Assembly: GCA_964016885.1 (NCBI GenBank)
Contig: OZ024746.1
Location: forward strand, 23,808,001-23,872,000
Direction of reading: 5' to 3'
From: Eledone cirrhosa
Lineage: Eukaryota
Length of the DNA: 64,000 nucleotides
The translations under genes and the position numbers were made by a program. How positions within the stretch are numbered: the first letter of the stretch is position 1; every line of letters starts with the position of its first letter. Positions 4,204-64,000 of this stretch are shown piece by piece. The notes below the pieces were generated by a model. It was not told where the DNA came from, did no database searches, and worked only from the letters and a program-made list of their open reading frames with translations.

Positions 4204-6292
4204 TCATCATCATCATCATCATCAACGTTTAACGTCCGCTTGCATGGGTTTGGATGGGGGTAGTCCCACTTGAGGCAAGAGTGATTGTCTTGCTCGCATA
4301 GGACTGTCTGGCAGGTTTTCTACAGTTGGATGCCCTTCCTAACACCAACCACATTTACAGTGTGGGTCTGGGAGGTTTTTACCGTGTTGCCTACACGGCC
4401 ACATTACAGCGTGGACTGTGTGTTTTTTTGTCGTGACACCTACACGATCTCATTTGTTTCGGCCTCGATGGCGCGGCACCAACATAACTTTACATAGAAC
4501 GGGGTGGTGTGGATGGGGTGGGGCTGGTGGTGGTGGGACGGGGTGTATTTTGTTAGAGATGCCTACTGGCTGGAGTAGGTTTTACTATATATTTAGGTAA
4601 GGCGGGTCTTCTCTGTTACTGAGTACCGCCAAAGGTCTCGGTCCAGTGACATTGTCTTGGAGAGGTGTAAGTGTGTGATGTCGGAGTTTATGAGCTTGTC
4701 CCAGGTTTTTCTAGGTCTGCCTATTCCGTGACTACCGTCTATCTTTATTGCCCTGCACTTTGTTATACAGCTATCGACTTTCATGCGCATCACATGTCCA
4801 TACCAACGTAGCCTTCTCTCGAGTAAACAACATCTGATCCCTCTTATCTCTAATTTTTTCCTTAGTTCGTTTATGCTTTGCCGTTCACGTATATTACTGT
4901 TACACATCCAGCAGAGCATGCAAGCTTCGTTCCTCTCTAGTCTGCGTGTATCCTCTGCACACAATGCCCAGGTCTCACTGCCATGCAGCATTGCTGTTCG
5001 TATGCAGGCATCGTACAACCTGCCTTTCATTTTTAGGGAGAACCCTTTAGCAGCTAATAGTGGTATAAGCTCTCTGAACTTTTTCCAACCAGTTCTGACT
5101 CTAGCTACAGTACTTTCAGAGCACCCTCCCCCACTGCTGATCTTATCGCCCAGGTAACGGAAGCTGTCCACTATTTCTATAGAACCCTCTGCGCAATTGA
5201 AAGAGCTAGTATTTTGTGGGCACTTGCTGCTACTTATTGCACCAGAACACCGGCCACATGTAAAATCTATGTTCTTAGTTAGCTTACCTGTGATCCCACT
5301 ACATCTTTTATGCACCCATACTTTGCATTTAGGACATAAAATGGAGTTTCTACCTACGCCTTTCCTACACACCGAGCACGACCATTTCCCAGAAGGGACC
5401 GCCACCTTGTTTTCTTTCCTACAAACTAGTACTTTGGTCTTAGCCAGGTTAATTTTAAGTCCTTTTGACTCTAGGCCGTGCTTCCATGTTTGGAATTTCT
5501 TCTCTAGCTCGGCCATTGATTCCGCTATGAGTGTCAGGTCGTCTGCGTATAGGAGTTCCCATGGGCAGCCTGTCTTGAACTCCTCTGTTATAGCCTGAAG
5601 GGCAATAATAAATAGTAGGGGGCTGAGAACAGAGCCCTGATGGACGCCAACTTTTACGCTAAACTCTTCACTATATTCGTTGTTAATTCTAACCTTGCTG
5701 ACTGTTTCTTTATACATGGCTTGTATAGCCCTCACAAGCCATTCGTCAACGCCTAGTTTTCTAAGAGCCCACCAGATAATGGAGCGGGGGACTCTGTCGA
5801 AGGCTTTCTCCAAGTCGACAAAAGCTAAGTAGAGGGGTTTACCTTTAGCTAGGTACTTCTCCTGTAGTTGTCGTACTATGAAAAGAGCGTCTGTGGTACT
5901 TTTGCCTGACACAAACCCGAACTGCATTTCATCTAGATCAATTCTCTCTCTGATTAGTTGCGCTATTACTTTTTCCGTGACCTTCATGACCTGGTCGATT
6001 AATTTAATGCCTCTATAGTTACTCCTATCTAGGGCGTCTCCTTTACCCTTATAACAGTTAACGATGATGCTGCTATGCCAGTCCTTCGGAACAACCCCAT
6101 TCTGTACGACTTGGTTAACTATGCGGGTGACCATGGTGTGTCCCACCGTGCCAGATGCCTTCAGCATCTCAGCAACTATTTCCGAAGGCCCAGCCGCCTT
6201 ACCCGTCTTCATATCCTTGATTGCCTTACTTATTATACTCCCCTCGACTAACACTGCTGGTCCCTCTATTGGGTCGATATGGGGGAGACTGG
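4204..6292 (-). mobile_element. RTE-clade non-LTR retrotransposon family A, 5'-truncated copy 1
   Basis: Open RT ORF, ~390-nt 3' UTR ending in a (TGA)n tail, 5' end truncated against (TA)n at 6293. Confidence 0.95.
4593..6254 (-). CDS. Reverse transcriptase region of RTE LINE (endonuclease missing by truncation) with internal PHD-like finger
   Basis: 553-aa ORF with [67 protein letters not shown] motifs. Confidence 0.93.
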   Translation of the reverse strand: MLVEGSIISKAIKDMKTGKAAGPSEIVAEMLKASGTVGHTMVTRIVNQVVQNGVVPKDWHSSIIVNCYKGKGDALDRSNYRGIKLIDQVMKVTEKVIAQLIRERIDLDEMQFGFVSGKSTTDALFIVRQLQEKYLAKGKPLYLAFVDLEKAFDRVPRSIIWWALRKLGVDEWLVRAIQAMYKETVSKVRINNEYSEEFSVKVGVHQGSVLSPLLFIIALQAITEEFKTGCPWELLYADDLTLIAESMAELEKKFQTWKHGLESKGLKINLAKTKVLVCRKENKVAVPSGKWSCSVCRKGVGRNSILCPKCKVWVHKRCSGITGKLTKNIDFTCGRCSGAISSSKCPQNTSSFNCAEGSIEIVDSFRYLGDKISSGGGCSESTVARVRTGWKKFRELIPLLAAKGFSLKMKGRLYDACIRTAMLHGSETWALCAEDTRRLERNEACMLCWMCNSNIRERQSINELRKKLEIRGIRCCLLERRLRWYGHVMRMKVDSCITKCRAIKIDGSHGIGRPRKTWDKLINSDITHLHLSKTMSLDRDLWRYSVTEKTRLT

Positions 6293-6496
6293 TATATATA
6301 TATATATTTCTTTTATTCTTTTACTGGTTTCAAGCATTAGACTGAGGCCATGCTGGGGCTTCTCTTTATTTTCCCAACTCTGACACATTTATTATCGATC
6401 TCTTGTTTTGTCAAACCTAGTCACAGGGCAAAAACACAGATACAGACACAAATGTAAGCATAGACATGGACTCCCGAAGACACACACACACATATA

Positions 6497-8647: not shown

Positions 8648-9747
8648 CATCAAATACACACATAGAAACCAACAAACCCATATATTTACATGGCAGTCTT
8701 CCACACAGTTTCTATCTACTAAATTTCACTCGCAAGGCAATTACATAATAGAAGACATTTGCCTAACGTACTACAGAATAAGACCAAACACAAACAGTAG
8801 CAAAATGATCTTCTTAGTCCCACATTCATGCCTACTTTATTTTTACACATAAAAAGAACCAAAATTTTCCTTATTAACCCACGTTCTGATTTGATACAGA
8901 AATACTTTTGTGTGACCATTGGAATCACTAATTAGAAATTCTTAATTGCTATTATCTAAGATATTTAAGTTAATAACTAACTTCAATAATTTTCATTTAT
9001 AATTTTTTGAAATGTTGATCATAGAATGTTGAAATAAAAAAAAAAGGTGGGGTAGGGGAATGAGGGGAGGGGCTATGATATTTCTGGAATATAAAAATGT
9101 AAAAACTACCAATTTCTGTAGTTATTCAATAACAATAGTTATACACAAAAACATTAAACATTAATCACACAGCAGCCATGGTATATGTGGCAATAGGTGA
9201 GGGTTTGTCTCTGAAGTTCGCTAATTAGAGAATTTATTTCATTTTGATTCTATCAAGTTTCTTTGAATTATAATGATTACTTGATTCCATTTGATATTAA
9301 TTATTTTTGTAACGAGGTTCAGAGAATCAAGATAATCTCTTGGTGTCGACAAAATCTTCACACAATTTTGATTATTGGTTATTGGCCAGTATATATTTTT
9401 TTCTTTTTATTGTATTGTCATAGAGGGTATGGCAGCACAGTTGATCCTTGTACAGGGCCTTCAAGATAGATAGGAGTGTGGGAAGGGCAGTGTTCTGGTT
9501 TTAAGGGGGAGCTAAAAGGGTTGGTGCGAAGAAGAGAATCTGGTCATAAAACATTGCTACAAAAAGGACCCCAGGATGAGTATGAAACTTGTCATGCGTC
9601 CTGCAAGGTTTTAACAATGAAAAATGACTTTAAGAAACTTGTTATTGTTGATATTGTTTTCTTTAACTTTTAATTACCCATTATTCAAAACAAAACTGGT
9701 TGACTATTATCATTTATACTATTAATATTATTAATTTTATTTTCCAG

Positions 9748-9934
9748 ATCTGTGAATATGCAAATGAATAATGGCGCTACTCCTGCATATCTAGCAAGTC
9801 AAGAAAGAAAGCTAGACATACTCAAGTATATTGTTACTGAAGCAAAGGGCTCCTTAAAGATAACTGCTTTTGATGGAATGTCTTGTTTACATGCTTCGGC
9901 ACAGATGGGACATTTAGATATCATCAAATGGCTC
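9748..9934 (+). CDS. ESPN: Internal coding exon (187 nt) of an espin/forked-like ankyrin-repeat protein
   Basis: tttccag acceptor, gtaagt donor at 9935. Translates SVNMQMNNGATPAYLASQERKLDILKYIVTEAKGSLKITAFDGMSCLHASAQMGHLDIIKWL, matching recalled espin motifs NGATPLYLACQEG and DGMTPLHAAAQMGH..WL. Exon is high confidence; orthology is from memory. Confidence 0.8.
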
Positions 9935-11207
9935 GTAAGTATCAATACGATTGGTCCATAACATTTCTTATTTAAGAGGAAAACTTCTTTATATGGCTAC
10001 AGAAGCTAGTTTTGGGTCATTTGCTGGGTTTCACTATAATCATAAATGAAAAAATGAGTTACTGGAAGAAGCAAACGAGCATTATTTGACATGCTGTATA
10101 TAGATTTTATGGTTATTTTCTGGATTTAATCCTTTGTAATGCCAAATTGTCTGAAACCACCCTTGGTTCTATTATATAAAACTGTTCATCTTAAAATATT
10201 TATAGCTATAGAAATGTGAGTAACTCAAACACAGAAATAACTGTAAAACAGTCAGTTGGTATAAATAATCATAGCATATAAATTCAAGTAAAATACCTTA
10301 AAGATGGAGAAGAGTGGTTAGTGGTTGCCAAGGAACTCAAAGTCTTCTAGAAACAGTAGTGAGTGGTCATGAGAGAAGAAGAGGGAGAAAAGAAGAAAGA
10401 TATAGAAAATATGTTGTTATTTCATCAGCCCACCCTCACAAGGATTGGGTCAACTTGAAGCTATGGTAAAGACACTTGCCCAAGATGGCACACAGTAGGA
10501 TTGAACCTGGGACCTAATGATTGGGAAGCCAACTACCTAACCATTCAGCCATGCCTGTGTCCACAATATTCATATAACATGTTGATTATAACAATTCTTT
10601 AATGACAACATCTAAATAATGTATAATGAAAATGGTCCATTAATTGACATTTAAAAAACTTAATTTAAAATATTTTCTGTAGTGCAAAGTTATAGGAGAA
10701 ATTAGAGAGAGAGAGCTTGGTTGTAATAAATATATAATAGTGATAGAAGTTATATATGAGAAATTATATATACCACTGAAAAGTGGTTGTTTTGGTGGTA
10801 AGAACCCAGCCCACACTAAAATGTTTATGTTAGTGTCATGATAAAAATCACCCAGCCCACCGTGTAAAGTGGTTGGTATTAAGAAGGGCATCCAACCATA
10901 GAAACCAAGTCAGAAACAGTTCTGTATGAGCAAGACATGGTCATCTGATCTTACAGTAGTAAAAGTTATATGAGAAATCATATATAGGAGATGATTTTGG
11001 CTGTAAAACATCTATAATGGTGACTTGAATTGAAAGAGGCAGCTGTGTCAAAGTAGACTCAAGGACACTGGTAAGCCTTATGGTAGACTTAATCTGTCAT
11101 GAGGAAGGGCAGTGTCGAGGACCCTTTCTAGAGTCACCTAGACTGAGGTGAGAGAGAGAGAGGTCATGCTCTACTATGGCTGGACCCTACAATAGTTATG
11201 CTCCACT

Positions 11208-13047: not shown

Positions 13048-13233
13048 GTGGAGGAAGCGAAAGCTGACCCAAATGAAAGGGATTTTGATGGTGCTACACC
13101 TTTGCACTTTGCAGCCAGCTGTGGTCAAGCCAAAGTTGTTGAATGGCTTTTGCAGTCAGGGGGAGCAACAATTTCCATGGATAAAACTGGAGCTACTCCA
13201 TTACATAATGCAGCTGAAATTGGCCAGTTGCAG
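13048..13233 (+). CDS. ESPN: Next coding exon (186 nt, phase 0/0) of the espin/forked-like gene
   Basis: ttttag acceptor, CAG|gtaaaa donor, in frame with the previous exon. Translates VEEAKADPNERDFDGATPLHFAASCGQAKVVEWLLQSGGATISMDKTGATPLHNAAEIGQLQ, resembling espin DGATAMHFAASRGH...GGTPLHDAAENG. Confidence 0.8.
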
Positions 13234-25833: not shown

Positions 25834-26299
25834 CACACAGCACACAGCACACACGAACACATGAACACACACACACACACAGCGCACACGCACACACACA
25901 CACACACACAGAGACAGTGTATTGTGTCCTTAAGCAAAATACTTATTTCATGATGCTGCAGTCCACTTAACTGGAAAAAATTAATTATGACTCCAGTGCC
26001 AAGCTGTATCACCCTTTGCTTTTCCTCTGGACAACATCATAACAGGCACTGTTAAGTTGCTGCCTGCAAGTGCCAAAGAGGAATGGGAGATGATGGATGG
26101 GAAAACAGTCCAGAAATTGAATGTGCTCATAGGAAAGAGCACCCTAGAACACAAATTAGCCACAGTTGGAGACAGTTTACTCAACCTGAAAAGATGCCAA
26201 TGGAGTGAGACAACCCAAAACAAAAATACTGTCTTGAAAATCCAGACATCAGCAAGAGACCACTTGAGAGACATCGTGTTTGTATTTTAATGCACACCA

Positions 26300-39185: not shown

Positions 39186-39204
39186 ACAGGAGAAGTATGT
39201 AATT

Positions 39205-40495
39205 TGTCACTAGCAACATATATTGCTATGTATTGTATCAGTAGCAACATATATTGTTATTTATTGTCTCACTAGCAACATATATTGCTATGTATTGTCT
39301 CACTAGCAACATATATTGCTATGAATTGTATCAGTAGCAACATATATTGTTATTTATTGTCTCACTAGCAACATATATTGTTATGTATTGTCTCACTAGC
39401 AACATATATTGCTATGTATTGTATCACTAGCAACATATATTGCTATGTATTGTATCACTAGCAACATATATTGCTATGTATTGTATCACTAGCAACATAT
39501 ATTGCTATGTATTGTATCACTAGCAACATATATTGCTATGTATTGTATCACTAGCAACATATATTATGTATTGTCTCACTAGCAACATATATTGCTATGT
39601 ATTGTCTCACTAGCAACATATATTGCTATGTATTGTATCAGTAGCAACATATATTGTTATGTATTGTCTCATTAGCAACATATATTGTTATGTATTGTCT
39701 CACTAGCAACATATATTGCTATGTATTGTATCAGTAACAACATATATTGTTATGTATTGTCTCACTAGCAACATATATTGCTATGTATTGTATCAGTAGC
39801 AACATATATTGCTATGTATTGTCTCACTAGCAACATATATTGCTATGTATTGTCTCACTAGCAACATATATTGTTATGTATTGTCTCATTAGCAACATAT
39901 ATTGTTATGTATTGTCTCACTAGCAACATATATTGCTATGTATTGTCTCACTAGCAACATATATTGCTATGTATTGTATCAGTAGCAACATATATTGCTA
40001 TGTATTGTCTCACTAGCAACATATATTGCTATGTATTGTCTCACTAGCAACATATATTGCTATGTATTGTATCAGTAACAACATATATTGTTATGTATTG
40101 TCTCACTAGCAACATATATTGCTATGTATTGTATCAGTAGCAACATATATTGCTATGTATTGTATCAGTAGCAACATATATTGCTATGTATTGTATCAGT
40201 AGCAACATATATTGCTATGTATTGTCTCACTAGCAACATATATTGTTATGTATTGTCTCACTAGCAACATATATTGCTATGTATTGTCTCACTAGCAACA
40301 TATATTTCTATGTATTGTCTCATTAGCAACATATATTGCTATGTATTGTCTCACTAGCAACATATATTTCTATGTATTGTATCAGTCGCAACATATATTG
40401 CTATGTATTGTCTCACTAGCAACATATATTGCTATGTATTGTCTCACTAGCAACATATATTTCTATGTATTGTATCAGTAGCAACATATATTGTC
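39205..40495. repeat. 31-bp minisatellite x ~41 (TAGCAACATATATTGCTATGTATTGTCTCAC) with internal hairpin
   Basis: Unit counted by eye; variants ctcac/atcac/atcag and gcta/gtta/tcta. Confidence 0.95.
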
Positions 40496-40595
40496 TATCT
40501 GCCTCTGTACCCCCCCCCCCCGCTCTTTATCCATTTCTATCCCTTCCTAAGTATCTCTCTCTCCTCATTTGTCTGTCTCTCTTTCTTTCTCACTG

Positions 40596-40636
<41 letters not shown>

Positions 40637-41120
40637 ATTCTGTTACTACATTATATGGATTATTACACTTAAAATTGGTTTATTTTGTTTGTTTTTTCTT
40701 GAGTAATTATAAAACCTAGAATACTTAGAAATTATAATGAGATATTTTCCAGAGGATTTGCACAAACATCACCGCTATCATCATCATCACAACATGTATG
40801 TGTGTGCCTGTATGTGTGTATGTGTGTGTATATGTGTATCTCATCATCATCACTATCATCATCATCCTCATATGTATGTGTGTGTGAATGTGTATATTTC
40901 ATCATCATCATCATTTTACATCTGTTCTATGCTTTTGATGGCTTGGCATGGTCTGAGACAAGATGGGTTGTGAGGGACGACATCTTTGTCCATGTGTTTC
41001 ATCTTTAGCATGGTTTCTACAGCTAGATGCTCTTCCTTATGTCAACCTCTTTATGGAGTGTACTGGGTATGTTTTATTATCGGCCTAGTACTACCTCTGT
41101 ATGTGTGTGTGTGCGTATAT

Positions 41121-41320
41121 AATAATAATAATAATAATAATAAAAAGGGCACTTTGTTATGTCTTTATTACACTTATTGAGTAGTGACGTGCGTTTCACA
41201 GTTGATCAGCTCAAGGTTCGATCTGTATTGATCTAGTCCAACTCTGGAATCAAAAGCTCGTCACTACTCAATAAATGTAATGAAGACATAACAAATTGTT
41301 CTTTTTATTATTATTATTAT
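41121..41320. mobile_element. Imperfect inverted repeat in (AAT)n/(ATT)n with degenerate hammerhead core
   Basis: Arms ~41121-41189 and 41259-41320; minus strand 41209-41186 reads CTGATCA-ACTGT-GAAAC-GCAC-GTC. Confidence 0.65.
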
Positions 41321-41414
41321 AATTACACTCTGCTTAGTTCTACACCTCTATACCGACTGGAGACTATACATTTAGTGGTCACTCTGGTGAAGCTACAGTA
41401 ACTGTATGCTACAT

Positions 41415-41451
<37 letters not shown>

Positions 41452-41950
41452 ACATATATATATATTACATATTACATACTGGAAGTAGTGGTGACTAACA
41501 GCCATGTACTAAAGTTAAATTAGAAGACAAAATAGTAAAGTGGAATAATGATACAAAAGAAAACTGTTTGATTCTATAAATAAATTATTAAGCCCTTTTC
41601 GCCCAGGGTCAGACAAACAATTCCATAATGACTAATTTTATCCCGTCTCCTGTTTTGTTTCTCTTTACCTTCCAGCTAAGATTTACCTTGAAACACCTCA
41701 AAATCAATGAAGAGATGTACGAGTAATATTATACCTCTTGTATGAATGGAAATACATAGAAATATTTTCAACAACATTCATACACACTCATATTTATACA
41801 CATGCACACATATATATACATTGACTGGTCTTACCAATAAGCCACACACCCTTGTGTTCTCATTTTTAAAAATGTTTTCATTTTATCACTAGTTTTTATT
41901 TTTTAACACTAAATCATAAAAAAAGTATGTATATATATATATATATATAT

Positions 41951-42305
41951 ATAAGCAAGCAAATGAATGAATGAAGGAGTTAGAAGCCGTTAAACCAACG
42001 GTATTTATACTTATTGATGACCTTATATAATCAATTATTTCTCTGAGGAGTCCATGTGGGCGAAACATGTGTAAGAGTTATATAAAGAACTTGTTTTAAT
42101 GGCTTGTAACTTCTTCATTCATTCATTTGCTTATTCCTGCTCTGCTTGAACAATATACTAAATATTAAATCTTCTTTAATATTTAACTCTGCTAACCCAA
42201 GCATTGAGCACACTCCGCTTCGGCTATTGGCATTAAGTAATCTGTATCGCACTTCTCTGTATCCCTCCATCTCCTCCTCTCCTATGATACTTATACCCTA
42301 TTATT
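41951..42305 (+). mobile_element. Penelope-like pLTR remnant with inverted short arm
   Basis: 41957-41998 is an imperfect inverted copy of 42091-42132; starts at (TA)n; contains a hammerhead. Confidence 0.7.
42039..42077 (+). ncRNA. Minimal type I hammerhead ribozyme
   Basis: TTCT-CTGAGGA-GTCC(ATGT)GGGC-GAAA-C(ATGT)G-TA^AGAG; all core nucleotides canonical, self-complementary stem III. Confidence 0.85.
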
Positions 42306-42307
42306 AT

Positions 42308-42490
42308 GTGGATTGGCAGTATCGGTAGAGGGTCGGATGCCATACTTTCCAGCATAATTACGTCCCTTTACGATTTGAGTTCAAATCCCGCCGAGGTTGA
42401 CTTTGCCTTTCATCCTTACGGGGTCGATAAAATAAAGTACCAGTAATACACTGGGTAATTGCTGGCCTTGTGCTTAAAGTAGACACAATT
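42308..42490 (+). mobile_element. S1 SINE, young copy
   Basis: Near-consensus head, B-box gagttcaaatccc and core. Confidence 0.9.
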
Positions 42491-42957
42491 ATATATATAT
42501 ATATATCATTTATTATCTATCATTAACATTAATATAAAACATAATAATAATCATATATATTTATTTTAAAGTTTTTTTACCTGAATATTTTTAGACAAGG
42601 GCCTCAAATTCCATATAGCTTAGGACCTCAGCAGGTGAATGTCTGGCCCTGCATACATATGCATGTGTACTGGTGGCACACTAAAATGCACTCGGCAGAG
42701 TGAGGAATTTTATGTGAGATGTGCCCCCAGCCCCCACCCCAGGCATCTGAGCACCCAGTAAAGTGTAGGAACATATGTTAGCAAGATACAGGCTCTTGGC
42801 CCATCTGAGACTTGATAGAGGAAGATCAGCATGGAAGATTAGCTACCAGATTTAAAATATGGCATGGGCTGAACTGAAATTAAGGTGATCATCCAGCCAT
42901 TGAATATTGCCCACCCATGTCAACATGGAAAAGTGAACATAAAGACAATGAAGATGA

Positions 42958-42994
<37 letters not shown>

Positions 42995-42998
<4 letters not shown>

Positions 42999-43179
42999 GT
43001 TATTCCGGGTTGAATCGGAGGTAACCACAGTAAGTAAGGTACTCAATACATTGCAGAGTATAAAAGTTTTAATATAGATGAGATTCTACAGGACTAGAAC
43101 TGTTTCATTCTTTAGAAATCATCAGCTGATGATTTCTAAAGAATGAAACAGTTCTAGTCCTGTAGAATCTCATCTATAT
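42995..43179. mobile_element. Asymmetric palindromic element: perfect 108-bp palindrome (43072-43179) plus a left extension, between (TA)n runs
   Basis: 54-bp arms with no spacer, axis atcag|ctgat at 43125/43126. Confidence 0.85.
43123..43162 (+). ncRNA. Hammerhead ribozyme motif (mirror copy on - strand at 43089-43128)
   Basis: CAG-CTGATGA-TTTC(TAAA)GAAT-GAAA-C(AGTTCTA)G-TC^CTG; core canonical, stem II closing pair U.U atypical. Confidence 0.65.
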
Positions 43180-43197
43180 ATATATATATATATATAT

Positions 43198-43618
43198 CGT
43201 CATCATCATACGGTGGCCTCAGCTGAAATCGACTCCACAATTGATCTCCACGTCAGTCTGTTGTTCATTGCTGCTCCCAAATCCTGGATTTCAATATCAG
43301 AATGTCTGGAGATGATATCGGGATAGGAGAGCTTCCAAAGCATTAATGGGGACACAACCTCATAGGTGGCATGATGGCACTGGCCAGCAAATCTTACTCT
43401 CCTTTTAGGTACAACAACAGATATGCATGGGAGGCCAGCATATATCTCTCACAAAGTCAGATGTCACCAGCTTATGTTCTGAATGCACTGAAGCAGGCGA
43501 ATGTAAGTGCCACAAGGCACTTTTGTTGTTTGGATGAAAGTGTCCATGTTTCACTTCCATATAGCAAGAATGGTTGAATTGTTACTTGGAAAAGTTTGAT
43601 TTTGGTGTGGTTGGAAAG
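43198..43618 (-). pseudogene. 3' fragment of a second RTE-like LINE family (B)
   Basis: Minus strand KIKLFQVTIQPFLLYGSETWTLS ... YPDIISRHSDIEIQDLGAAMNNRLTWRSIVESISAEATV* plus (TGA)n. Confidence 0.75.
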
Positions 43619-43637
43619 ATATATATATTTATATATA

Positions 43638-44088
43638 TGCAAAAGTTCTATTTAAATTGTTGGGATACAACAAGCAAATATTTTTATAACTGATATAAAG
43701 CACTCGACAAGTATTTGGAGTAAATATACGATATTAACAAATGGAAACTATATTTATAAAACCATATTTATTTTATTATACATATTTCAAGGATACCATG
43801 TTAAATTATGGTATGCCTTCATCAGACAAAATACAATATATACCAGTTTTATAAATAAATTTTAACATACCCTTTCAAAATGCAACCGTTACTTTTGGAA
43901 GAGATCAGGATGTCTTCCAAAAGTAACGGTTGCATTTTGAAAGGGTATGTTAAAATTTATTTATAAAACTGGTATATATTGTATTTTGTCTGATGAAGGC
44001 ATACCATAATTTAACATGGTATCCTTGAAATATGTATAATAAAATAAATATGGTTTTATAAATATAGTTTCCATTTGTTAATATCGTA

Positions 44089-44094
<6 letters not shown>
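43638..44094. mobile_element. Asymmetric palindromic element: 182-bp arms (43721-43902 / 43913-44094), 10-nt spacer, left extension, between (TA)n runs
   Basis: Arms read as exact reverse complements by eye. Confidence 0.9.
43982..44046 (+). ncRNA. Type I hammerhead ribozyme (mirror copy on - strand at 43769-43833)
   Basis: TATTTTGT-CTGATGA-AGGCATACCAT(AATTTAAC)ATGGTATCCTT-GAAA-T(ATGT)A-TA^ATAAAATA; 8-bp stem I, 11-bp stem II with one mismatch, self-complementary stem III. Confidence 0.85.
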
Positions 44095-44128
<34 letters not shown>

Positions 44129-44263
44129 CACGTACACACACGTGTGTGTATACATACATACAGACACGTATTTTTTAATATATTTGGAGGGAATATAAAG
44201 ATAACTGCAATGTATAATTGTTCATCTTAATAAAGGATCAAAGAATATATATAATCATATATA

Positions 44264-44297
<34 letters not shown>

Positions 44298-44423
44298 CAA
44301 AATTAAATTAAGGGTTGTCATGTCTGAGAGACATGCGCCATATCCACTGTAGAATAAGCTCAAAGATTCTACAGTGGATATGGCGCATGTCTCTCAGACA
44401 TGACAACCCTTAATTTAATTTTG
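44298..44423. repeat. Perfect inverted repeat, 58-bp arms and 10-nt spacer, embedded in (TA)n
   Basis: 44298-44355 is the reverse complement of 44366-44423; no hammerhead core. Confidence 0.9.
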
Positions 44424-50216: not shown

Positions 50217-50534
50217 ACAAAAAAACACACAGTCCACGCTGTAAATGTGGCCGTGTAGGCAACACGGTAAAAACCTCAGCCCCACACTGTAAATGTGGTT
50301 GGTGTTAGGAAGGGCATCCAGCTGTAGAAAACCCGCCAGACAGTCCACGCTGTAATGTGGCCGTGTAGGCAACACGGTAGAAACCTCCCAGCCCCACACT
50401 GTAAATATGGTTGGTGTTAGGAAGGGCATCCAGCTGTAGAAAACCCGCCAGACAGTCCTATGCGAGCAAGACAACCACTCTTGCCTCAAGTGGGAAAGCC
50501 CCCGTCCAAACCCATGCAAGCGTGGAACAAGGAC
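50217..50534 (+). mobile_element. RTE-A 3' UTR fragment fused head-to-head to copy 2
   Basis: Matches ~59497-59817 including its internal tandem duplication; lacks the (TGA)n tail. Confidence 0.85.
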
Positions 50535-50911
50535 ACATATGTATGTGTGTATATATATATATATGTATATGTATATATATATATGTGTATATATGTGTAT
50601 ATATATATGTGTGTATATATGTATATGTATATATATATGTGTATATATGTATATATATATGTGTATATATGTATATGTATATATATATGTGTATATATGT
50701 ATATGTATATATATATGTGTATATATGTATATGTATATATATATGTGTATATATGTATATGTATATGTATATGTGTATATGTGTATATATGTATATGTAT
50801 ATGTATATGTGTATATATGTATATGTATATGTATATATATGTATATATGTATATGTATATATATATATGTATATATGTATATATATATGTATATATGTAT
50901 ATGTATATATG

Positions 50912-50944
<33 letters not shown>

Positions 50945-51039
50945 GTATATGTATATATGTATATGTATATATATGTATATATATATATGTATATATATAT
51001 ATGTATATATATATATGTATATATATATATGTATATATG

Positions 51040-51108
<69 letters not shown>

Positions 51109-51653
51109 GTATATATGTATATATATATATATGTATATATATATGTGTATATGTATATATATATGTGTATATGTATATATATATATGTGTATGTATATAT
51201 ATATATGTGTGTATTTATATATGTGTGTATATATATATATGTGTGTATATATATATATATATGTATATATATGTGTATATATATATATATATATGTGTGT
51301 GTATATATATATATATATATGTGTGTGTATATATATATATATATATGTGTGTGTATATATATATATATATGTGTATGTGTGTATATATATATGTGTATGT
51401 GTGTATATATATATGTGTATGTGTGTATATATATATGTGTATGTGTGTATATATATATGTGTATGTGTGTGTATATATATGTGTATGTGTGTGTATATAT
51501 ATATATATATATGTGTATATATATATATATGTGTGTATATATATATATGTGTGTATATATATATATGTGTATATATATATATATATGTGTGTATATATAT
51601 ATATGTGTATATATATATATATATGTGTGTATATATATATATATGTGTATATA

Positions 51654-51750
<97 letters not shown>

Positions 51751-51860
51751 ATATATATATATATATATATGTGTATATATATATATATATATATGTGTAT
51801 ATATATAGATGTGTATATATATATATGTCTATATATATGTGTATATATATGTATGTGTAT
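50535..51860. repeat. (TA)n/(TG) compound array
   Basis: Directly visible. Confidence 0.95.
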
Positions 51861-52903
51861 ATCATCATCATCAGGTTTAGCGTCCGTGTTCCACGCTTGC
51901 ATGGGTTTGGACGGGGGTAGTCCCACTTGAGGCAAGAGTGGTTGTCTTGCTCGCATAGGACTGTCTGGCGGGTTTTCTACAGTTGGATGCCCTTCCTAAC
52001 ACCAACCACATTTACAGTGTGGGTCTGGGAGGTTTTTACCGTGTTGCCTACACGGCCACATTACAGCGTGGACTGTGTGTTTTTTTGTCGTGACACCTAC
52101 ACGATCTCATTTGTTTCGGCCTGGATGGCGCGGCACCAACATAACTTTACATAGAACGGGGTGGTGTGGATGGGGTGGGGGTGGTGGCGGGATGGGGTGT
52201 ATTTTGTTAGAGATGCCTACTGGCAAGGCGGGTCTTCTCTGTTACTGAGTACCGCCAAAGGTCTCGGTCCAGTGACATTGTCTTGGAGAGGTGTAAGTGT
52301 GTGAGGTCGGAGTTTATCAGCCCATCCCATGTTTTTCTAGGTCTGCCTATTCCGTGGCTACCGTCTATCTTTATTGCCCTGCACTTTGTAATACAGCTAT
52401 CGACTTTCATGCGCATCACGTGTCCATACCAACGCAGCCTTCTCTCGAGTAAACAACATCTGATCCCTCTTATCTCTAATTTTTTCCTTAGTTCGTTTAT
52501 GCTTTGCCGTTCACGTATATTACTGTTACACATCCAGCGGAGCATGCAAGCTTCGTTCCTCTCTAGTCTGCGTATATCCTCTGCACACAATGCCCAGGTC
52601 TCACTACCATGCAACATTGCTGTTCGTATGCAGGCATCGTACAACCTGCCTTTCATTTTTAGGGAGAACCCTTTAGCAGCTAATAGTGGTATAAGCTCTC
52701 TGAACTTTTTCCAACCAGTTCTGACTCTAGCTACAGTACTTTCAGAGCACCCTCCCCCACTGCTGATTTTATCGCCCAGGTAACGGAAGCTGTCCACTAT
52801 TTCTATAGAACCCTCTGCGCAATTGAAAGAGCTAGTATTTTGTGGGCACTTGCTGCTACTTATTGCACCAGAACACCGGCCACATGTAAAGTCTATGTTC
52901 TTA

Positions 52904-52905
<2 letters not shown>
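51861..52905 (-). mobile_element. RTE-A copy 3, 5'-truncated into (TA)n, with a small deletion at the ORF stop
   Basis: Homologous to 4204-5279; gcctactggc joins aaggcggg, removing the stop region. Confidence 0.93.
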
Positions 52906-52941
<36 letters not shown>

Positions 52942-52988
52942 ATATATATATGTGTATATATATATGTGTATATATATATGTGTATATA

Positions 52989-53029
<41 letters not shown>

Positions 53030-53053
53030 ATATATGTGTGTATATATATATAT

Positions 53054-53660
53054 GTCAGGTCACCAGTTGGTGCTACTGGTAACATGTATCCCAGTACAAC
53101 CTGTCTCATGGTCGGGTCGTTGGCGACTAAACTGGCAACCCCACCAAGGTTTCTTGGTGAGGAGGGTGACTTTGGACATCCTGCAGGACTAAAAACAAAA
53201 CCTGTCAAAGGGCAAAGGAGCTCTTAAGAGTCAATGGCCATCCAAAATGACCGGGAGAGATGACCCCTTAGCCTTTGTCAAAGCAGAATTCTAGGAGAAG
53301 GAAAACTCTGATATAACACCTGCAACCCTCATGGTATCCAATGATGTTGACTTGTTCTTCTTTTTGGTAAATATCATCTTGGTTAAGAGAGTGGGACTGG
53401 CTTTGTGCAGTGCCTTTGCTCACTATAAAAGCTTCACGGCACAGGCATTGCTTTATATCTGGAGAGCTCTCTGCTCTTGTTGTCACATGGTACAATGGGC
53501 CCAGCACTATGTATCAATAATTGTCACAAGTGTAGTGTTTGTACCAGAGTTTTCAAGTCGCTGGCTGGACTAAAAAGTCACACTTGTTCAGCGCATCGGT
53601 AGGGGTTCTCCTACATGGATATAAAGTAGTGGCCGTACTCGAAAACGAGTTGGCAGCCAC
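53054..53660 (+). pseudogene. Degraded RTE 5' region (5' UTR plus probable APE endonuclease remnant)
   Basis: 5' part homologous to 8400-8647; 3' part [18 protein letters not shown] only loosely resembles the APE C-terminal SDH region. Confidence 0.4.
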
Positions 53661-57637
<3,977 letters not shown>

Positions 57638-58008
57638 AAGTAAAGCGGGATGTGAGGAAGGGCATTGCTGTTGCACTTCCAGACGGCGAGGGTCCTCCTA
57701 TGGTGCTGACATGCAGCGTCTGTGCGAGACTCTGCCTAAGCAAAGCTGGACTCGAAAGACATCTTCGCAGTCATAAAGTAAGACCAGTGGTTGACTAGCA
57801 GGCTGCTGTTGGAGATCCTACTCATCATGCTTGCCAAACATGTGGTAGAGAATGTAAATCACCAGGAGGGTTCAAGCGACATGCAAAAGTACACGAACTC
57901 CAACCACAGCCGACTATTCCCAGTGAATGTTTTGATTGCCGACTCTGTGCAAGACATTTTAGATCATTGGCTGGGCTAAAAAGCCACATTCGATCGCAGC
58001 GCTGTTAG
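57638..58008 (+). pseudogene. Fragment with three tandem C2H2-type zinc fingers, probably a LINE ORF C-terminus (duplicate at 61912-62283)
   Basis: [21 protein letters not shown], in-frame [47 protein letters not shown]. Confidence 0.7.
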
Positions 58009-58127
58009 TTGCTATCGTATGTGTGTAGATATGCTTATGTGTGTGCGTGTGTGTGTATATATATATGTATATGTATATTATTATTGTTTTTGTCGTTATT
58101 GTTATTGTTATTATTATTATTATTATG

Positions 58128-58180
<53 letters not shown>

Positions 58181-58319
58181 GTATATATATGTATATATAT
58201 ATATATGTATGTATATATATATATGTATGTATATATATGTATATGTATGTATATATATGTATATGTATGTATATATATGTATATGTATGTATATATATAT
58301 GTATATATATATATATATA

Positions 58320-59846
58320 TTTATTATTGCCCTTCAGGCTATAACAGAGGAGTTCAAGACCGGCTGCCCATGGGAACTCCTATACGCAGATGATCTAACG
58401 CTCATAGCTGAATCAATGACCGAACTAGAGAAGAAATTCCAAACATGGAAGCACGGCCTAGAATCAAAAGGCCTTAAAATTAACCTGGCTAAGACAAAAG
58501 TTCTAGTTTGTAGGAAAGAAAATATGGCGGCAGTCCCATCTGGGAAATGGCCATGCTCAGTGTGTAGGAAAGGCGTAGGTAGAAACTCCATTTTATTTCC
58601 CAAATGCAAAGTATGGGTGCATAAAAGATGTAGTGGGATCACAGGTAAGCTAACTAAGAACATAGATTTTACATGTGGCCGGTGCTCTGGTGCAATAAGT
58701 AGCAGCAAGCGCCCACAAAATACTAGCTCCTTCAACTGCGCAGAGGGTTCTATAGAAATAGTGGACAGCTTCCGTTACCTGGGTGACAAAATCAGCAGTG
58801 GGGGAGGGTGCTCTGAAAGTACAGTAGCTAGAGTCAGAACTGGATGGAAAAAGTTCAGAGAGCTTATACCACTATTAGCCGCTAGAGGGTTCTCCCTAAA
58901 AATGAAAGGCAGGTTATACGATGCCTGCATACGAACAGCAATGCTGCATGGCAGTGAGACCTGGGCATTGTGTGCAGAGGATATACGCAGACTAGAGAGG
59001 AACGAAGCTTGCATGCTCCGCTGGATGTCCAATAGTAATATACGTGAACGGCAAAGCATAAACGAACTAAGGAAAAAATTAGAAATAAGAGGGATCAGAT
59101 GTTGTTTACTCGAGAGAAGGCTACGTTGGTACGGTCACGTGATGCGCATGAAAGACGACAGCTGTATAACAAAGTGCAGGGCAATAAAGATAGACGGTAG
59201 CCACGGAGTAGGCAGACCCAGAAAAACATGGGACGAGCTGATAAATTCCGACCTCACACGCTTACACCTCTCCAAGACAATGTCACTGGACCGAGACCTT
59301 TGGCGGTACTCAGTAATAGAGAAGACCCGCCTTACCTAAATACAAAGTAAAAACCTACTACAGTCAGTAGGCATCTCTATCAAAACACCCCCCCGTCCCA
59401 CCACCTCCACCCCATCCACACCGCCCCTTTCAATGTACAGTTATGTTGGTCCCACAACATCCAGGCCGAAACAAATGAGATCGTGTAGGTGTCACGACAA
59501 AAAAAACACACAGTCCACGCTGTAAATGTGGCCCTGTAGGTAACACGGTAAAAACCTCCCAGCCCCACACTGTAAATGTGGTTGGTGTTAGGAAGGGCAT
59601 CCAGCTGTAGAAAACCCGCCAGACAGTCCACGCTGTAATGTGGCCGTGTAGGCAACACGGTAAAAACCTCCCAGCCCCACACTGTAAATGTGGTTGGTGT
59701 TAGGAAGGGCATCCAACTGTAGAAAACCCGCCAGACAGTCCTATGCGAGCAAGACAACCACTCTTGCCTCAAGTGGGAAAACCCCCGTCCAAACCCATGC
59801 AAGCGTGGAACACGGACGCTAAACCTGATGATGATGATGATGATGA
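58320..59846 (+). mobile_element. RTE-A copy 4, 5'-truncated, with tandem duplication in the 3' UTR
   Basis: Open frame FIIALQAI...LLYADD...EKTRLT* (to 59339); (TGA)n tail then (TA)n. Confidence 0.93.
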
Positions 59847-61911
<2,065 letters not shown>

Positions 61912-62402
61912 TAAAGTAAGCGGGATGTGAGGAAGGGCATTGCTGTTGCACTTCCAGACGGCGAGGGTCCTCCTATGGTGCTGACATGCAGCGTCTGTGC
62001 GAGACTCTGCCTAAGCAAAGCTGGACTCGAAAGACATCTTCGCAGTCATAAAGTAAGACCAGTGGTTGACTAGCCGGCTGCTGTTGGAGATCCTACTCAT
62101 CATGCTTGCCAAACATGTGGTAGAGAATGTAAATCACCAGGAGGGTTCAAGCGACATGCAAAAGTACACGAACTCCAACCACAGCCGACTATTCCCAGTG
62201 AATGTTTTGATTGCCGACTCTGTGCAAGACATTTTAGATCATTGGCTGGGCTAAAAAGCCACATTCGATCGCAGCGCTGTTAGTTGCTATCGTATGTGTG
62301 TAGATATGCTTATGTGTGTGCGTGTGTGTGTATATATATATGTATATGTATATTATTATTGTTTTTGTCGTTATTGTTATTGTTATTATTATTATTATTA
62401 TG

Positions 62403-62435
<33 letters not shown>

Positions 62436-62543
62436 GTATATATATTATATATATGTATATATATGTATATATATATATATGTATGTATATATATATATGT
62501 ATGTATATATATGTATATGTATGTATATATATGTATATGTATG

Positions 62544-62575
<32 letters not shown>

Positions 62576-64000
62576 TTTATTATTGCCCTTCAGGCTATAA
62601 CAGAGGAGTTCAAGACCGGCTGCCCATGGGAACTCCTATACGCAGATGATCTAACGCTCATAGCTGAATCAATGACCGAACTAGAGAAGAAATTCCAAAC
62701 ATGGAAGCACGGCCTAGAATCAAAAGGCCTTAAAATTAACCTGGCTAAGACAAAAGTTCTAGTTTGTAGGAAAGAAAATATGGCGGCAGTCCCATCTGGG
62801 AAATGGCCATGCTCAGTGTGTAGGAAAGGCGTAGGTAGAAACTCCATTTTATTTCCCAAATGCAAAGTATGGGTGCATAAAAGATGTAGTGGGATCACAG
62901 GTAAGCTAACTAAGAACATAGATTTTACATGTGCCGGTGCTCTGGTGCAATAAGTAGCAGCAAGCGCCCACAAAATACTAGCTCCTTCAACTGCGCAGAG
63001 GGTTCTATAGAAATAGTGGACAGCTTCCGTTACCTGGGTGACAAAATCAGCAGTGGGGGGAGGGTGCTCTGAAAGTACAGTAGCTAGAGTCAGAACTGGA
63101 TGGAAAAAGTTCAGAGAGCTTATACCACTATTAGCCGCTAGAGGGTTCTCCCTAAAAATGAAAGGCAGGTTATACGATGCCTGCATACGAACAGCAATGC
63201 TGCATGGCAGTGAGACCTGGGCATTGTGTGCAGAGGATATACGCAGACTAGAGAGGAACGAAGCTTGCATGCTCCGCTGGATGTGCAATAGTAATATACG
63301 TGAACGGCAAAGCATAAACGAACTAAGGAAAAAATTAGAAATAAGAGGGATCAGATGTTGTTTACTCGAGAGAAGGCTACGTTGGTACGGTCACGTGATG
63401 CGCATGAAAGACGACAGCTGTATAACAAAGTGCAGGGCAATAAGATAGACGGTAGCCACGGAGTAGGCAGACCCAGAAAAACATGGGACGAGCTGATAAA
63501 TTCCGACCTCACATGCTTACACCTCTCCAAGACAATGTCACTGGACCGAGACCTTTGGCGGTACTCAGTAATAGAGAAGACCCGCCTTACCTAAATACAA
63601 AGTAAAAACCTACTACAGTCAGTAGGCATCTCTATCAAAACACCCCCCCGTCCCACCACCTCCACCCCATCCACACCGCCCCTTTCAATGTACAGTTATG
63701 TTGGTCCCACAACATCCAGGCCGAAACAAATGAGATCGTGTAGGTGTCACGACAAAAAAAACACACAGTCCACGCTGTAAATGTGGCCCTGTAGGTAACA
63801 CGGTAAAAACCTCCCAGCCCCACACTGTAAATGTGGTTGGTGTTAGGAAGGGCATCCAGCTGTAGAAAACCCGCCAGACAGTCCACGCTGTAATGTGGCC
63901 GTGTAGGCAACACGGTAAAAACCTCCCAGCCCCACACTGTAAATGTGGTTGGTGTTAGGAAGGGCATCCAACTGTAGAAAACCCGCCAGACAGTCCTATG
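62576..64000 (+). mobile_element. RTE-A copy 5 (duplicate of copy 4 with single-base indels), runs off the window
   Basis: Same 5' truncation point and flanks as copy 4; frameshifts near 62933, 63060 and 63442. Confidence 0.9.

Follow-up and report, generated by a model that had tools for sequence, protein, structure and literature searches.

Five palindromes in one window

The window analysed here is a stretch of 64,000 nucleotides from Eledone cirrhosa (contig OZ024746.1 of assembly GCA_964016885.1, positions 23,808,001 to 23,872,000 of the forward strand), in which a cluster of five palindromes, named P1 to P5, occupies positions 41121-44423. They are very probably separate insertions into (TA)n of ribozyme-bearing ends of Penelope-like elements (PLEs), generated by head-to-head joining of complementary DNAs (cDNAs) after priming at two sites. 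The initial annotation of this DNA had claimed five inverted repeats; all five lie where it placed them and are the only ones that an inverted-repeat scan finds in the window, although the elements themselves extend beyond the coordinates then quoted. Its further claims, that four of the repeats contain a hammerhead core reading outward from the axis (one of them degenerate) and that in four of them one arm runs on while the other stops, are also confirmed: P1-P4 contain a core of the type CTGA-N-GA...GAAA...NUH, with CTGATCA in P1, and in these same four the extension is the tail of the family (106, 169, 79 and 91 nt in the reference copies of P1, P2, P3 and P4). Each repeat had in addition been described as bounded by microsatellite, of which the targeting of (TA)n stands; the ATT run of P1, in contrast, belongs to the short end of the element itself, occurring on each arm and in other copies of the family, and is not a target, and the right end of P2 adjoins another repeat rather than a microsatellite. 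An Rfam search of the window at the gathering threshold gave no match.

P1 (41119..41417) consists of a short arm on the minus strand, from 41262 to the ATT run at 41119, and a long, tail-bearing arm on the plus strand (41259-41417), the two being joined via a 4-nt overlap (41259-41262). In P2 (41957..42307) the short arm is on the minus strand, from 41957 to ~41998, and the long arm with its tail is on the plus strand (41996-42307). The orientation is reversed in P3 (42995..43179), with the long arm on the minus strand (43125-42995), the short arm on the plus strand (43126-43179) and a blunt join at C3 of the hammerhead core. P4 (43638..44094) likewise has its long arm on the minus strand (43906-43638) and its short arm on the plus strand (43909-44086), the latter carrying 8 further nt in common with the start of the tail; the hairpin measures 186 bp. 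We take P2 and P3 for ends of Hydra-type PLEs, and P4 for the end of a young one. P5 (44298..44423) is made of two tail-only arms, both ending at the outer site, and has no hammerhead core. Ungapped, the arms are identical at 47/54 positions in P1, 54/54 in P3, 185/186 in P4 and 58/58 in P5; those of P2 are ~87% identical, gaps included.

The near perfection of P3, P4 and P5 could be taken to mean that the palindromes are fold-back artefacts of sequencing or assembly, and none of the read-derived sequences was shown to span an axis here: in four runs the Logan contigs end at the repeats without bridging an axis, and reads from restriction site-associated DNA of three other samples, which contain the P3 family and one opposite-strand joint with a single start, do not discriminate at this site. 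However, the flanks are unique and unmirrored, the arms stop at family-specific sites, those of P1 and P2 have diverged, and dozens of other loci share the same build with different junctions, so that an artefact is the least probable of all the explanations considered here.

Repeat families and their link to Penelope-like elements

Each palindrome represents a separate repeat family. The family searches returned 2,760 candidates for P1, 459 for P2, 1,115 for P4 and 1,697 for P5, first-look counts that are lower bounds, with 40 scored per family; P3 was counted by a genome-wide pattern search, since similarity search skips common words, and gave 7,832 exact matches of a 42-mer. The loci studied were not drawn at random: they comprise best hits and the first C1 matches. 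How far family copies extend at the 5' side varies; they are found singly, as inverted pairs or in tandem, and terminate at either of two constant positions, namely a short site, located at a TA-like stretch within the element, or a long site 79-169 nt beyond it. The existence of several unrelated families, their targeting of (TA)n and their inverted 5'-truncated copies, all proposed from the window alone, are thus supported.

Extension of the families into open reading frames (ORFs) encoding reverse transcriptase (RT) and a GIY-YIG endonuclease, which had been suggested as a check, succeeded for P2, P3 and P4 and failed for P1 and P5. In P4, 3.3 kb, from the hammerhead end through a 558-aa ORF, are common to loci L120 and L122 at 94% identity; homologs of this ORF have ~700 aa, one of them with a weak RVT_1 match. 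In P2, ~2.5 kb including RT and endonuclease pieces are common to L124-L126. In P3, the tail in L187 reads straight into an ATG 47 nt past the long end, and is the 5' untranslated region (UTR) directly ahead of that ATG; the ORF (with one frameshift) is followed by a 3' UTR ending in the hammerhead again, and L186 matches this ORF and 3' end at 90-95%. In all three families a single ORF, which adjoins the repeat without a break, encodes RT and, after it, the GIY-YIG endonuclease, a call made by YRDD and GIY-YIG-type motifs and by homology to P0001/P0018 rather than by a Pfam cut-off. The motifs found in the ORFs overall are RWR, DKT, YRDD, CxCX5C, CxxC and CxH: the P3 ORF has the full Hydra set, the P4 ORF piece CxCX5C, CxxC and CxH, and the P2 pieces DKT, CxCX5C, CxxC and CxH. 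Translations inspected by eye show no CCHH motif in the endonuclease. Insertion into (TA)n was observed, and P2, P3 and P4 have 5'-truncated copies, direct or inverted, in which one end carries a tail. By these sequence features P2, P3 and P4 are stubs of autonomous Hydra-type PLEs, and not the short families that had been supposed. A PLE origin is therefore upheld for these three by their continuity with RT/GIY-YIG ORFs; for P1 and P5, in which no such ORF was found, it is probable, both sharing the architecture of P2-P4. P1 is an older family. Copies of P1 have ~1.1 kb of upstream sequence in common.

Several points count against this assignment. Pfam gave no significant match on five ORF pieces from this genome, and the RVT_1 match (E 9e-6) is on the homolog P0018 only, below the Pfam cut-off; membership of the Hydra clade is read from motifs and a by-eye match to the published text on Hydra-1_Obim. 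No continuous ORF was found in 14 extended loci of P1, nor in 6 loci of 10 kb for P5, families in which longer copies may exist.

Inverted ends beside TA, together with a junction that recurs in several P1 copies, would also be expected if the palindromes were miniature inverted-repeat transposable elements with terminal inverted repeats (TIR MITEs), derived from TA-duplicating DNA transposons. Such elements have fixed equal inverted termini and a fixed length; here, the arms are unequal, the 5' ends variable, solo and tandem copies exist, and P2-P4 continue into RT/endonuclease ORFs. This origin, which had been named as one that would overturn the PLE link, is refuted for P2-P4, is less improbable for P1 and P5, and is highly improbable for the set as a whole.

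Nested beside copies of P2 and P4 is another type of PLE that is unrelated to them and has GIY-YIG and a CxxC linker (L018:1956-3168, L019:3-800 and L081:2257-3135).

Hammerhead cores

Among the window copies, complete hammerheads are, as judged from sequence, confined to P2 and P4. The minimal type I hammerhead of P2 (42043..42073, plus strand) has a stem I of 4 bp and is placed in the unpaired loop between the arms, whereas the complete type I hammerhead of P4 (43990..44038, plus strand; mirror copy at 43825-43777 on the minus strand), with a stem I of 8 bp, lies inside the perfect hairpin and is complete on both arms. The window copies of P1 and P3 are predicted to be dead as ribozymes. The degenerate core of P1 (41186..41209, minus strand) has C for G at position 8 (G8C) and a stem I interrupted beside the core; in P3 (43126..43164, plus strand; mirror copy at 43125-43087 on the minus strand) both arms begin at C3, without the 5' strand of stem I that the family has. 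An early register for P3, with cleavage after GTC, was dropped, as family copies favour a cut after GTA and a 5-bp stem I, and the family fold is backed by a two-sided stem I change between subfamilies (100 vs 8 occurrences). Exact CTGA-N-GA is absent from both strands of the P5 copy at L131:4290-5140; a scrambled-order hammerhead was considered for this family and its core was not found. Energy folding of five hammerhead stretches gave z values of -1.98 to +0.60 and did not return the catalytic fold.

Conservation of the core across family copies, on which the initial annotation had made its proposal depend, differs between families: the hammerhead is intact at 26/30 loci of P4, core and stem I are kept in 15/30 copies of P2, and no copy of P1 has an intact hammerhead (0/30, with CTGATCA in 26/30). 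At family level, a type I hammerhead in the pseudo-long terminal repeat (pLTR) is present in P2, P3 and P4. The suggestion that ribozyme and antisense arm land together as cassettes does not survive as a general description, and masking of the ribozyme by its antisense arm holds for P4 alone: P2 is unmasked, its core being in the loop, P1 and the window copy of P3 are predicted dead, and P5 is coreless. The P1 family has thousands of matches, and almost every copy sampled carries G8C and an interrupted stem I; it has therefore spread with a ribozyme predicted to be dead.

P5 itself is a unit of ~545 nt that lacks coding sequence, is often in partial tandem and inserts into (TA)n; it has PLE-type ends and a 100-nt tail (L128:4497-5309 and L131:4290-5140). 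In the part of the account of metazoan non-LTR retrozymes considered here (bioRxiv 10.64898/2026.07.22.740005), these elements resemble P5 in being non-coding and partially tandem with PLE-type ends, but their definition asks for a type I hammerhead per unit, and P5, coreless on both strands, is therefore not a non-LTR retrozyme by that definition.

Mostly one short and one long end per insertion

Tight head-to-head pairs of the P1-P4 families (gap -30 to +80, overlapping loci merged, n=71) follow a strongly skewed pattern of ends: 63 are long+short, 5 short+short, none long+long and 3 other, and for the 68 classed pairs independent choice of ends gives p ~3e-14. In 12 of the 63 long+short pairs the long arm consists of tail only, without overlap to the short arm; the short arm is therefore not its copy, and both arms come from RNA. 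Pairs of P5 mostly obey the same rule, by eye. The rule is weakened by P1, in which 4/20 pairs are short+short, and by the window copy of P5, which carries two outer ends.

We propose that, at a cut target, both ends would serve as primers for reverse transcription beginning at two constant positions within the element RNA, and that the two short cDNAs would then be joined head to head. The two priming events would be coupled, and the joins blunt or made via short overlaps. In P3 we lean towards a further step, in which the template would be an uncleaved mRNA that starts ~6 nt before the hammerhead core, the cDNAs in many cases running off its capped 5' end. The resulting stubs are dead on arrival, accumulate in regions rich in TA tracts and, most probably, serve no selected function in the host.

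A competing mechanism, self-priming, has already been put forward for PLE palindromes (PMC3846280, in the part considered here). According to it, one cDNA primed at the long start site would fold back at its 3' end and copy itself, after which its TA-like short site would anneal to the distal end of the target. Perfect arms and the blunt axes of P3 and P5 agree with such a fold-back, as do the position of the short ends at TATA-like stretches within the elements and the two identical outer ends of the window P5. However, a self-copied arm cannot account for the 12 pairs in which the arms do not overlap, nor for those elsewhere in which the short arm extends upstream past the long one and is thus not its copy, and we consider self-priming unlikely.

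Two-site priming has a precedent in PAc, a Poseidon element of Anolis, which in vitro cuts and extends both strands, with RT starting at two internal positions (Frangieh et al. 2024, PMC11167929, of which we draw on a part, here as below). As in our families, its two internal start sites define the tail and both strands are used; PAc belongs to a different clade, and in vitro shows no strand preference of start site, whereas 63/68 genomic pairs here are long+short. The genomic pairs use the two start sites once each, which goes beyond the Anolis findings in vitro. In the same system G8C kills the ribozyme but not insertion, and the ribozyme is unneeded (PMC11167929).

Palindromes of this kind are also known from the Penelope elements of Adineta vaga (Arkhipova et al. 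2013, PMC3846280) and Drosophila virilis (Schostak et al. 2008, PMC2377424), which, in the passages considered, share with ours head-to-head inverted pLTRs, palindromic junctions, a tail on one arm and a pLTR-internal promoter. In Adineta the palindromes were interpreted as self-priming on an antisense template, and TATA plus an initiator (Inr) were predicted in the pLTR promoter (PMC3846280); the D. virilis promoter is TATA-less (PMC2377424). The passages on these two elements mention no copies that terminate, with an additional G, at the start site.

In L1 twin priming, two target ends prime one insertion, giving non-overlapping inversions that start from the poly(A) end. Our palindromes differ from these, in that the arms overlap and start inside the 5' UTR.

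A pile-up at a probable start site in P3

P3 copies terminate where stem I begins, in its first bases, in clear excess of expectation: among the first 30 matches on C1, 20 stop, by eye, no more than ~8 nt from a single site there. A TATA box, TATAAATA, lies 30 nt upstream of this site in 20/21 main-subfamily occurrences and 29-33 nt upstream in others, a count in which overlapping loci are not merged. Initiators follow the pattern YYANWYY, and in long copies the pile-up point falls within a match to it. The base preceding the site, taken genome-wide, is the genomic C in 5,200 cases, G in 1,103, A in 126 and T in 141. When 50 of the G copies were inspected, 37 were inverted pairs and 11 solo, and at most 2 extended upstream; of 20 A and T copies, 4-5 are point changes in long copies. 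In full-length L1 insertions, an untemplated 5' G at the first base of the RNA has been taken as copying of the cap (PMC9341517, in the part considered), and a cap signature is likewise the reading that we somewhat favour for the non-genomic G before the P3 site.

Other sources of this G, and its behaviour elsewhere, speak against a cap. In 10 or more of the 50 copies, perhaps 15 by eye, it could derive from the partner arm or from the inverted repeat of stem I; fold-back of one base yields a G likewise; and 4 of the 11 solo copies have GA before the G, possibly from a (GA)n target. The same test at the P4 pile-up site, with 8 matches only, gave no support. An axis at the start site as a general feature of all families was also considered, and was not seen among 52 sampled hammerheads. 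Few copies end at the P3 cleavage site: of 104 with a tail, 2 do so at +46 and 4 within +44 to +47, in a sample biased to copies with the core.

If the cap reading is right, the P3 mRNA would have its start followed by the hammerhead at +1 to ~+51, the short site at +56 to +74, the long site at +134 and the ATG at ~+182; short P3 palindromes would then be pairs of run-off cDNAs, the window copy having stopped 6 nt short on both arms. It is an even chance, in our judgement, that the genome thus holds a record of capped, uncleaved P3 mRNA beginning at stem I, reverse transcribed from two 5' UTR sites to the cap (with the extra G in ~1,100 copies), each start being used once per insertion. If so, the axis of a palindrome would mark the transcription start, the template would be sense RNA and full-length copies would need read-through RNA; P1, with its thousands of matches carrying G8C, would show that cleavage is dispensable in vivo. 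A literature search, with subscription journals outside its coverage, turned up no cap or start-site signature reported for PLEs.

Similar clustering was noticed in other families. P4 copies cluster at a 5' site ~80 nt upstream of the hammerhead, just before a hairpin (43907-43925 in the window; L001-L030), and TATAAAA occurs 27-29 nt ahead of the P4-type core. Several P2 copies (L078, L080, L082 and L087) start within a few bases of the 5' end of the window P2, at 41996, a possible pile-up. P3 cores with the genomic upstream base are strand-skewed genome-wide (3,776 forward, 1,424 reverse), and reads contain same-strand P3 joints stepping back ~60 nt; the genome thus probably has, at some place, a small P3 hammerhead unit repeated in tandem.

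Comparison with the Hydra clade

The Hydra clade of PLEs is described as having a C-terminal GIY-YIG, a (TA)n target and canonical hammerheads (Craig et al. 2021, PMC8557442), and the parts of that work considered here provide the closest likeness. Shared with Hydra-1_Obim-type elements are the C-terminal GIY-YIG, an RWK-like motif, DKT, CxCX5C, CxxC and CxH, and with the clade in general the type I hammerhead, the (TA)n target, the inverted 5'-truncated copy and the tail at one end. However, the tails of the clade are 30-40 nt long, as opposed to 79-169 nt here, our families differ by 3' UTRs of ~1.4 kb, and the hammerhead of Hydra-1_Obim is not the same as ours, two P3/P4 words being absent from the supplement. 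In these same parts the description of the clade contains no count of end pairing and no 5' pile-up.

The palindromes are thus of a known kind that is common in this genome: 5'-truncated inverted copies in (TA)n that bear their tail on one side have already been published for the clade, and confinement of the tail to one end has been described in words for PLEs (PMC8557442 and PMC3846280, in part). It is the two mechanistic signals, rather than the locus itself, that carry value, because they touch on the open question of how PLEs make tandem and inverted copies. The end pairing (63/68 long+short) and the start-site pile-up with a cap-like G amount to two testable predictions, and, within the PLE literature covered here, the P3 pile-up with its extra G appears to be new.

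Genomic context and frequency

By homology, exons of an espin-like ankyrin-repeat gene lie on the plus strand at 9746-9937 and 13048-13233. The second of these corresponds to residues 223-284, and the protein continues residue for residue (283/285 onward) in L245:6090-6215, the next exon lying ~6.1 kb beyond the end of the window. The cluster is therefore within a ~57-kb intron of a plus-strand gene, to which the P2 core is sense, and the earlier supposition of a transcript crossing the palindromes gains support, inferred from homology.

Frequency was estimated from 38 evenly spaced 10-kb samples (380 kb) of the 3.0-Gb genome. The scan for inverted repeats and hammerheads, and for their co-occurrence with (TA)n, that had been called for found 55 palindromes, of which 44 are flanked by TA-type sequence and 17 contain a core. 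The hammerhead descriptor gave 52 matches in the samples and 0 in complemented or reversed controls, and the motif is therefore far above chance. This density, ~one palindrome per 7 kb, corresponds to an estimated ~430,000 palindromes genome-wide. Five palindromes in 3.4 kb have a Poisson probability of 1.6e-4, with ~140 such tiles expected in the genome; the samples reached three at most. By this Poisson estimate the site is not special, contrary to what the initial annotation implied: the cluster is a high-end outcome of a process that is common, and, as a locus, ordinary debris. For annotators, this means ~400,000 hammerhead motifs and as many palindromes in this genome, so that single finds are to be expected.

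These numbers bear on the idea that the palindromes are selected host elements, acting as ribozyme-plus-antisense cassettes or as ADAR/Dicer substrates that regulate the espin-like pre-mRNA. Points in favour are their intronic position on the transcribed strand and the 186-bp hairpin that P4 would give, and cephalopods are known for adenosine-to-inosine editing. However, with ~430,000 such palindromes estimated genome-wide, insertions that are young and family-typical stubs, and 3/5 palindromes without a complete ribozyme, a host role is very improbable. Incidental editing of P4, as distinct from function, is plausible.

Other features of the window are repeats or fragments. A 31-nt minisatellite (42 copies, 39196-40498) lies directly left of the palindrome cluster. 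Within 50229-64000, three similar blocks at ~50-53, 58-60 and 62-64 kb, each with a 112-nt repeat, a fragment of a long interspersed nuclear element (LINE) and long TA/TG tracts, are either a local duplication or an assembly repeat. By eye, a 575-aa LINE-type RT fragment is recognised at 4596-6320 on the minus strand, and a short ORF resembling a piece of a transposase at 25991-26287 on the plus strand.

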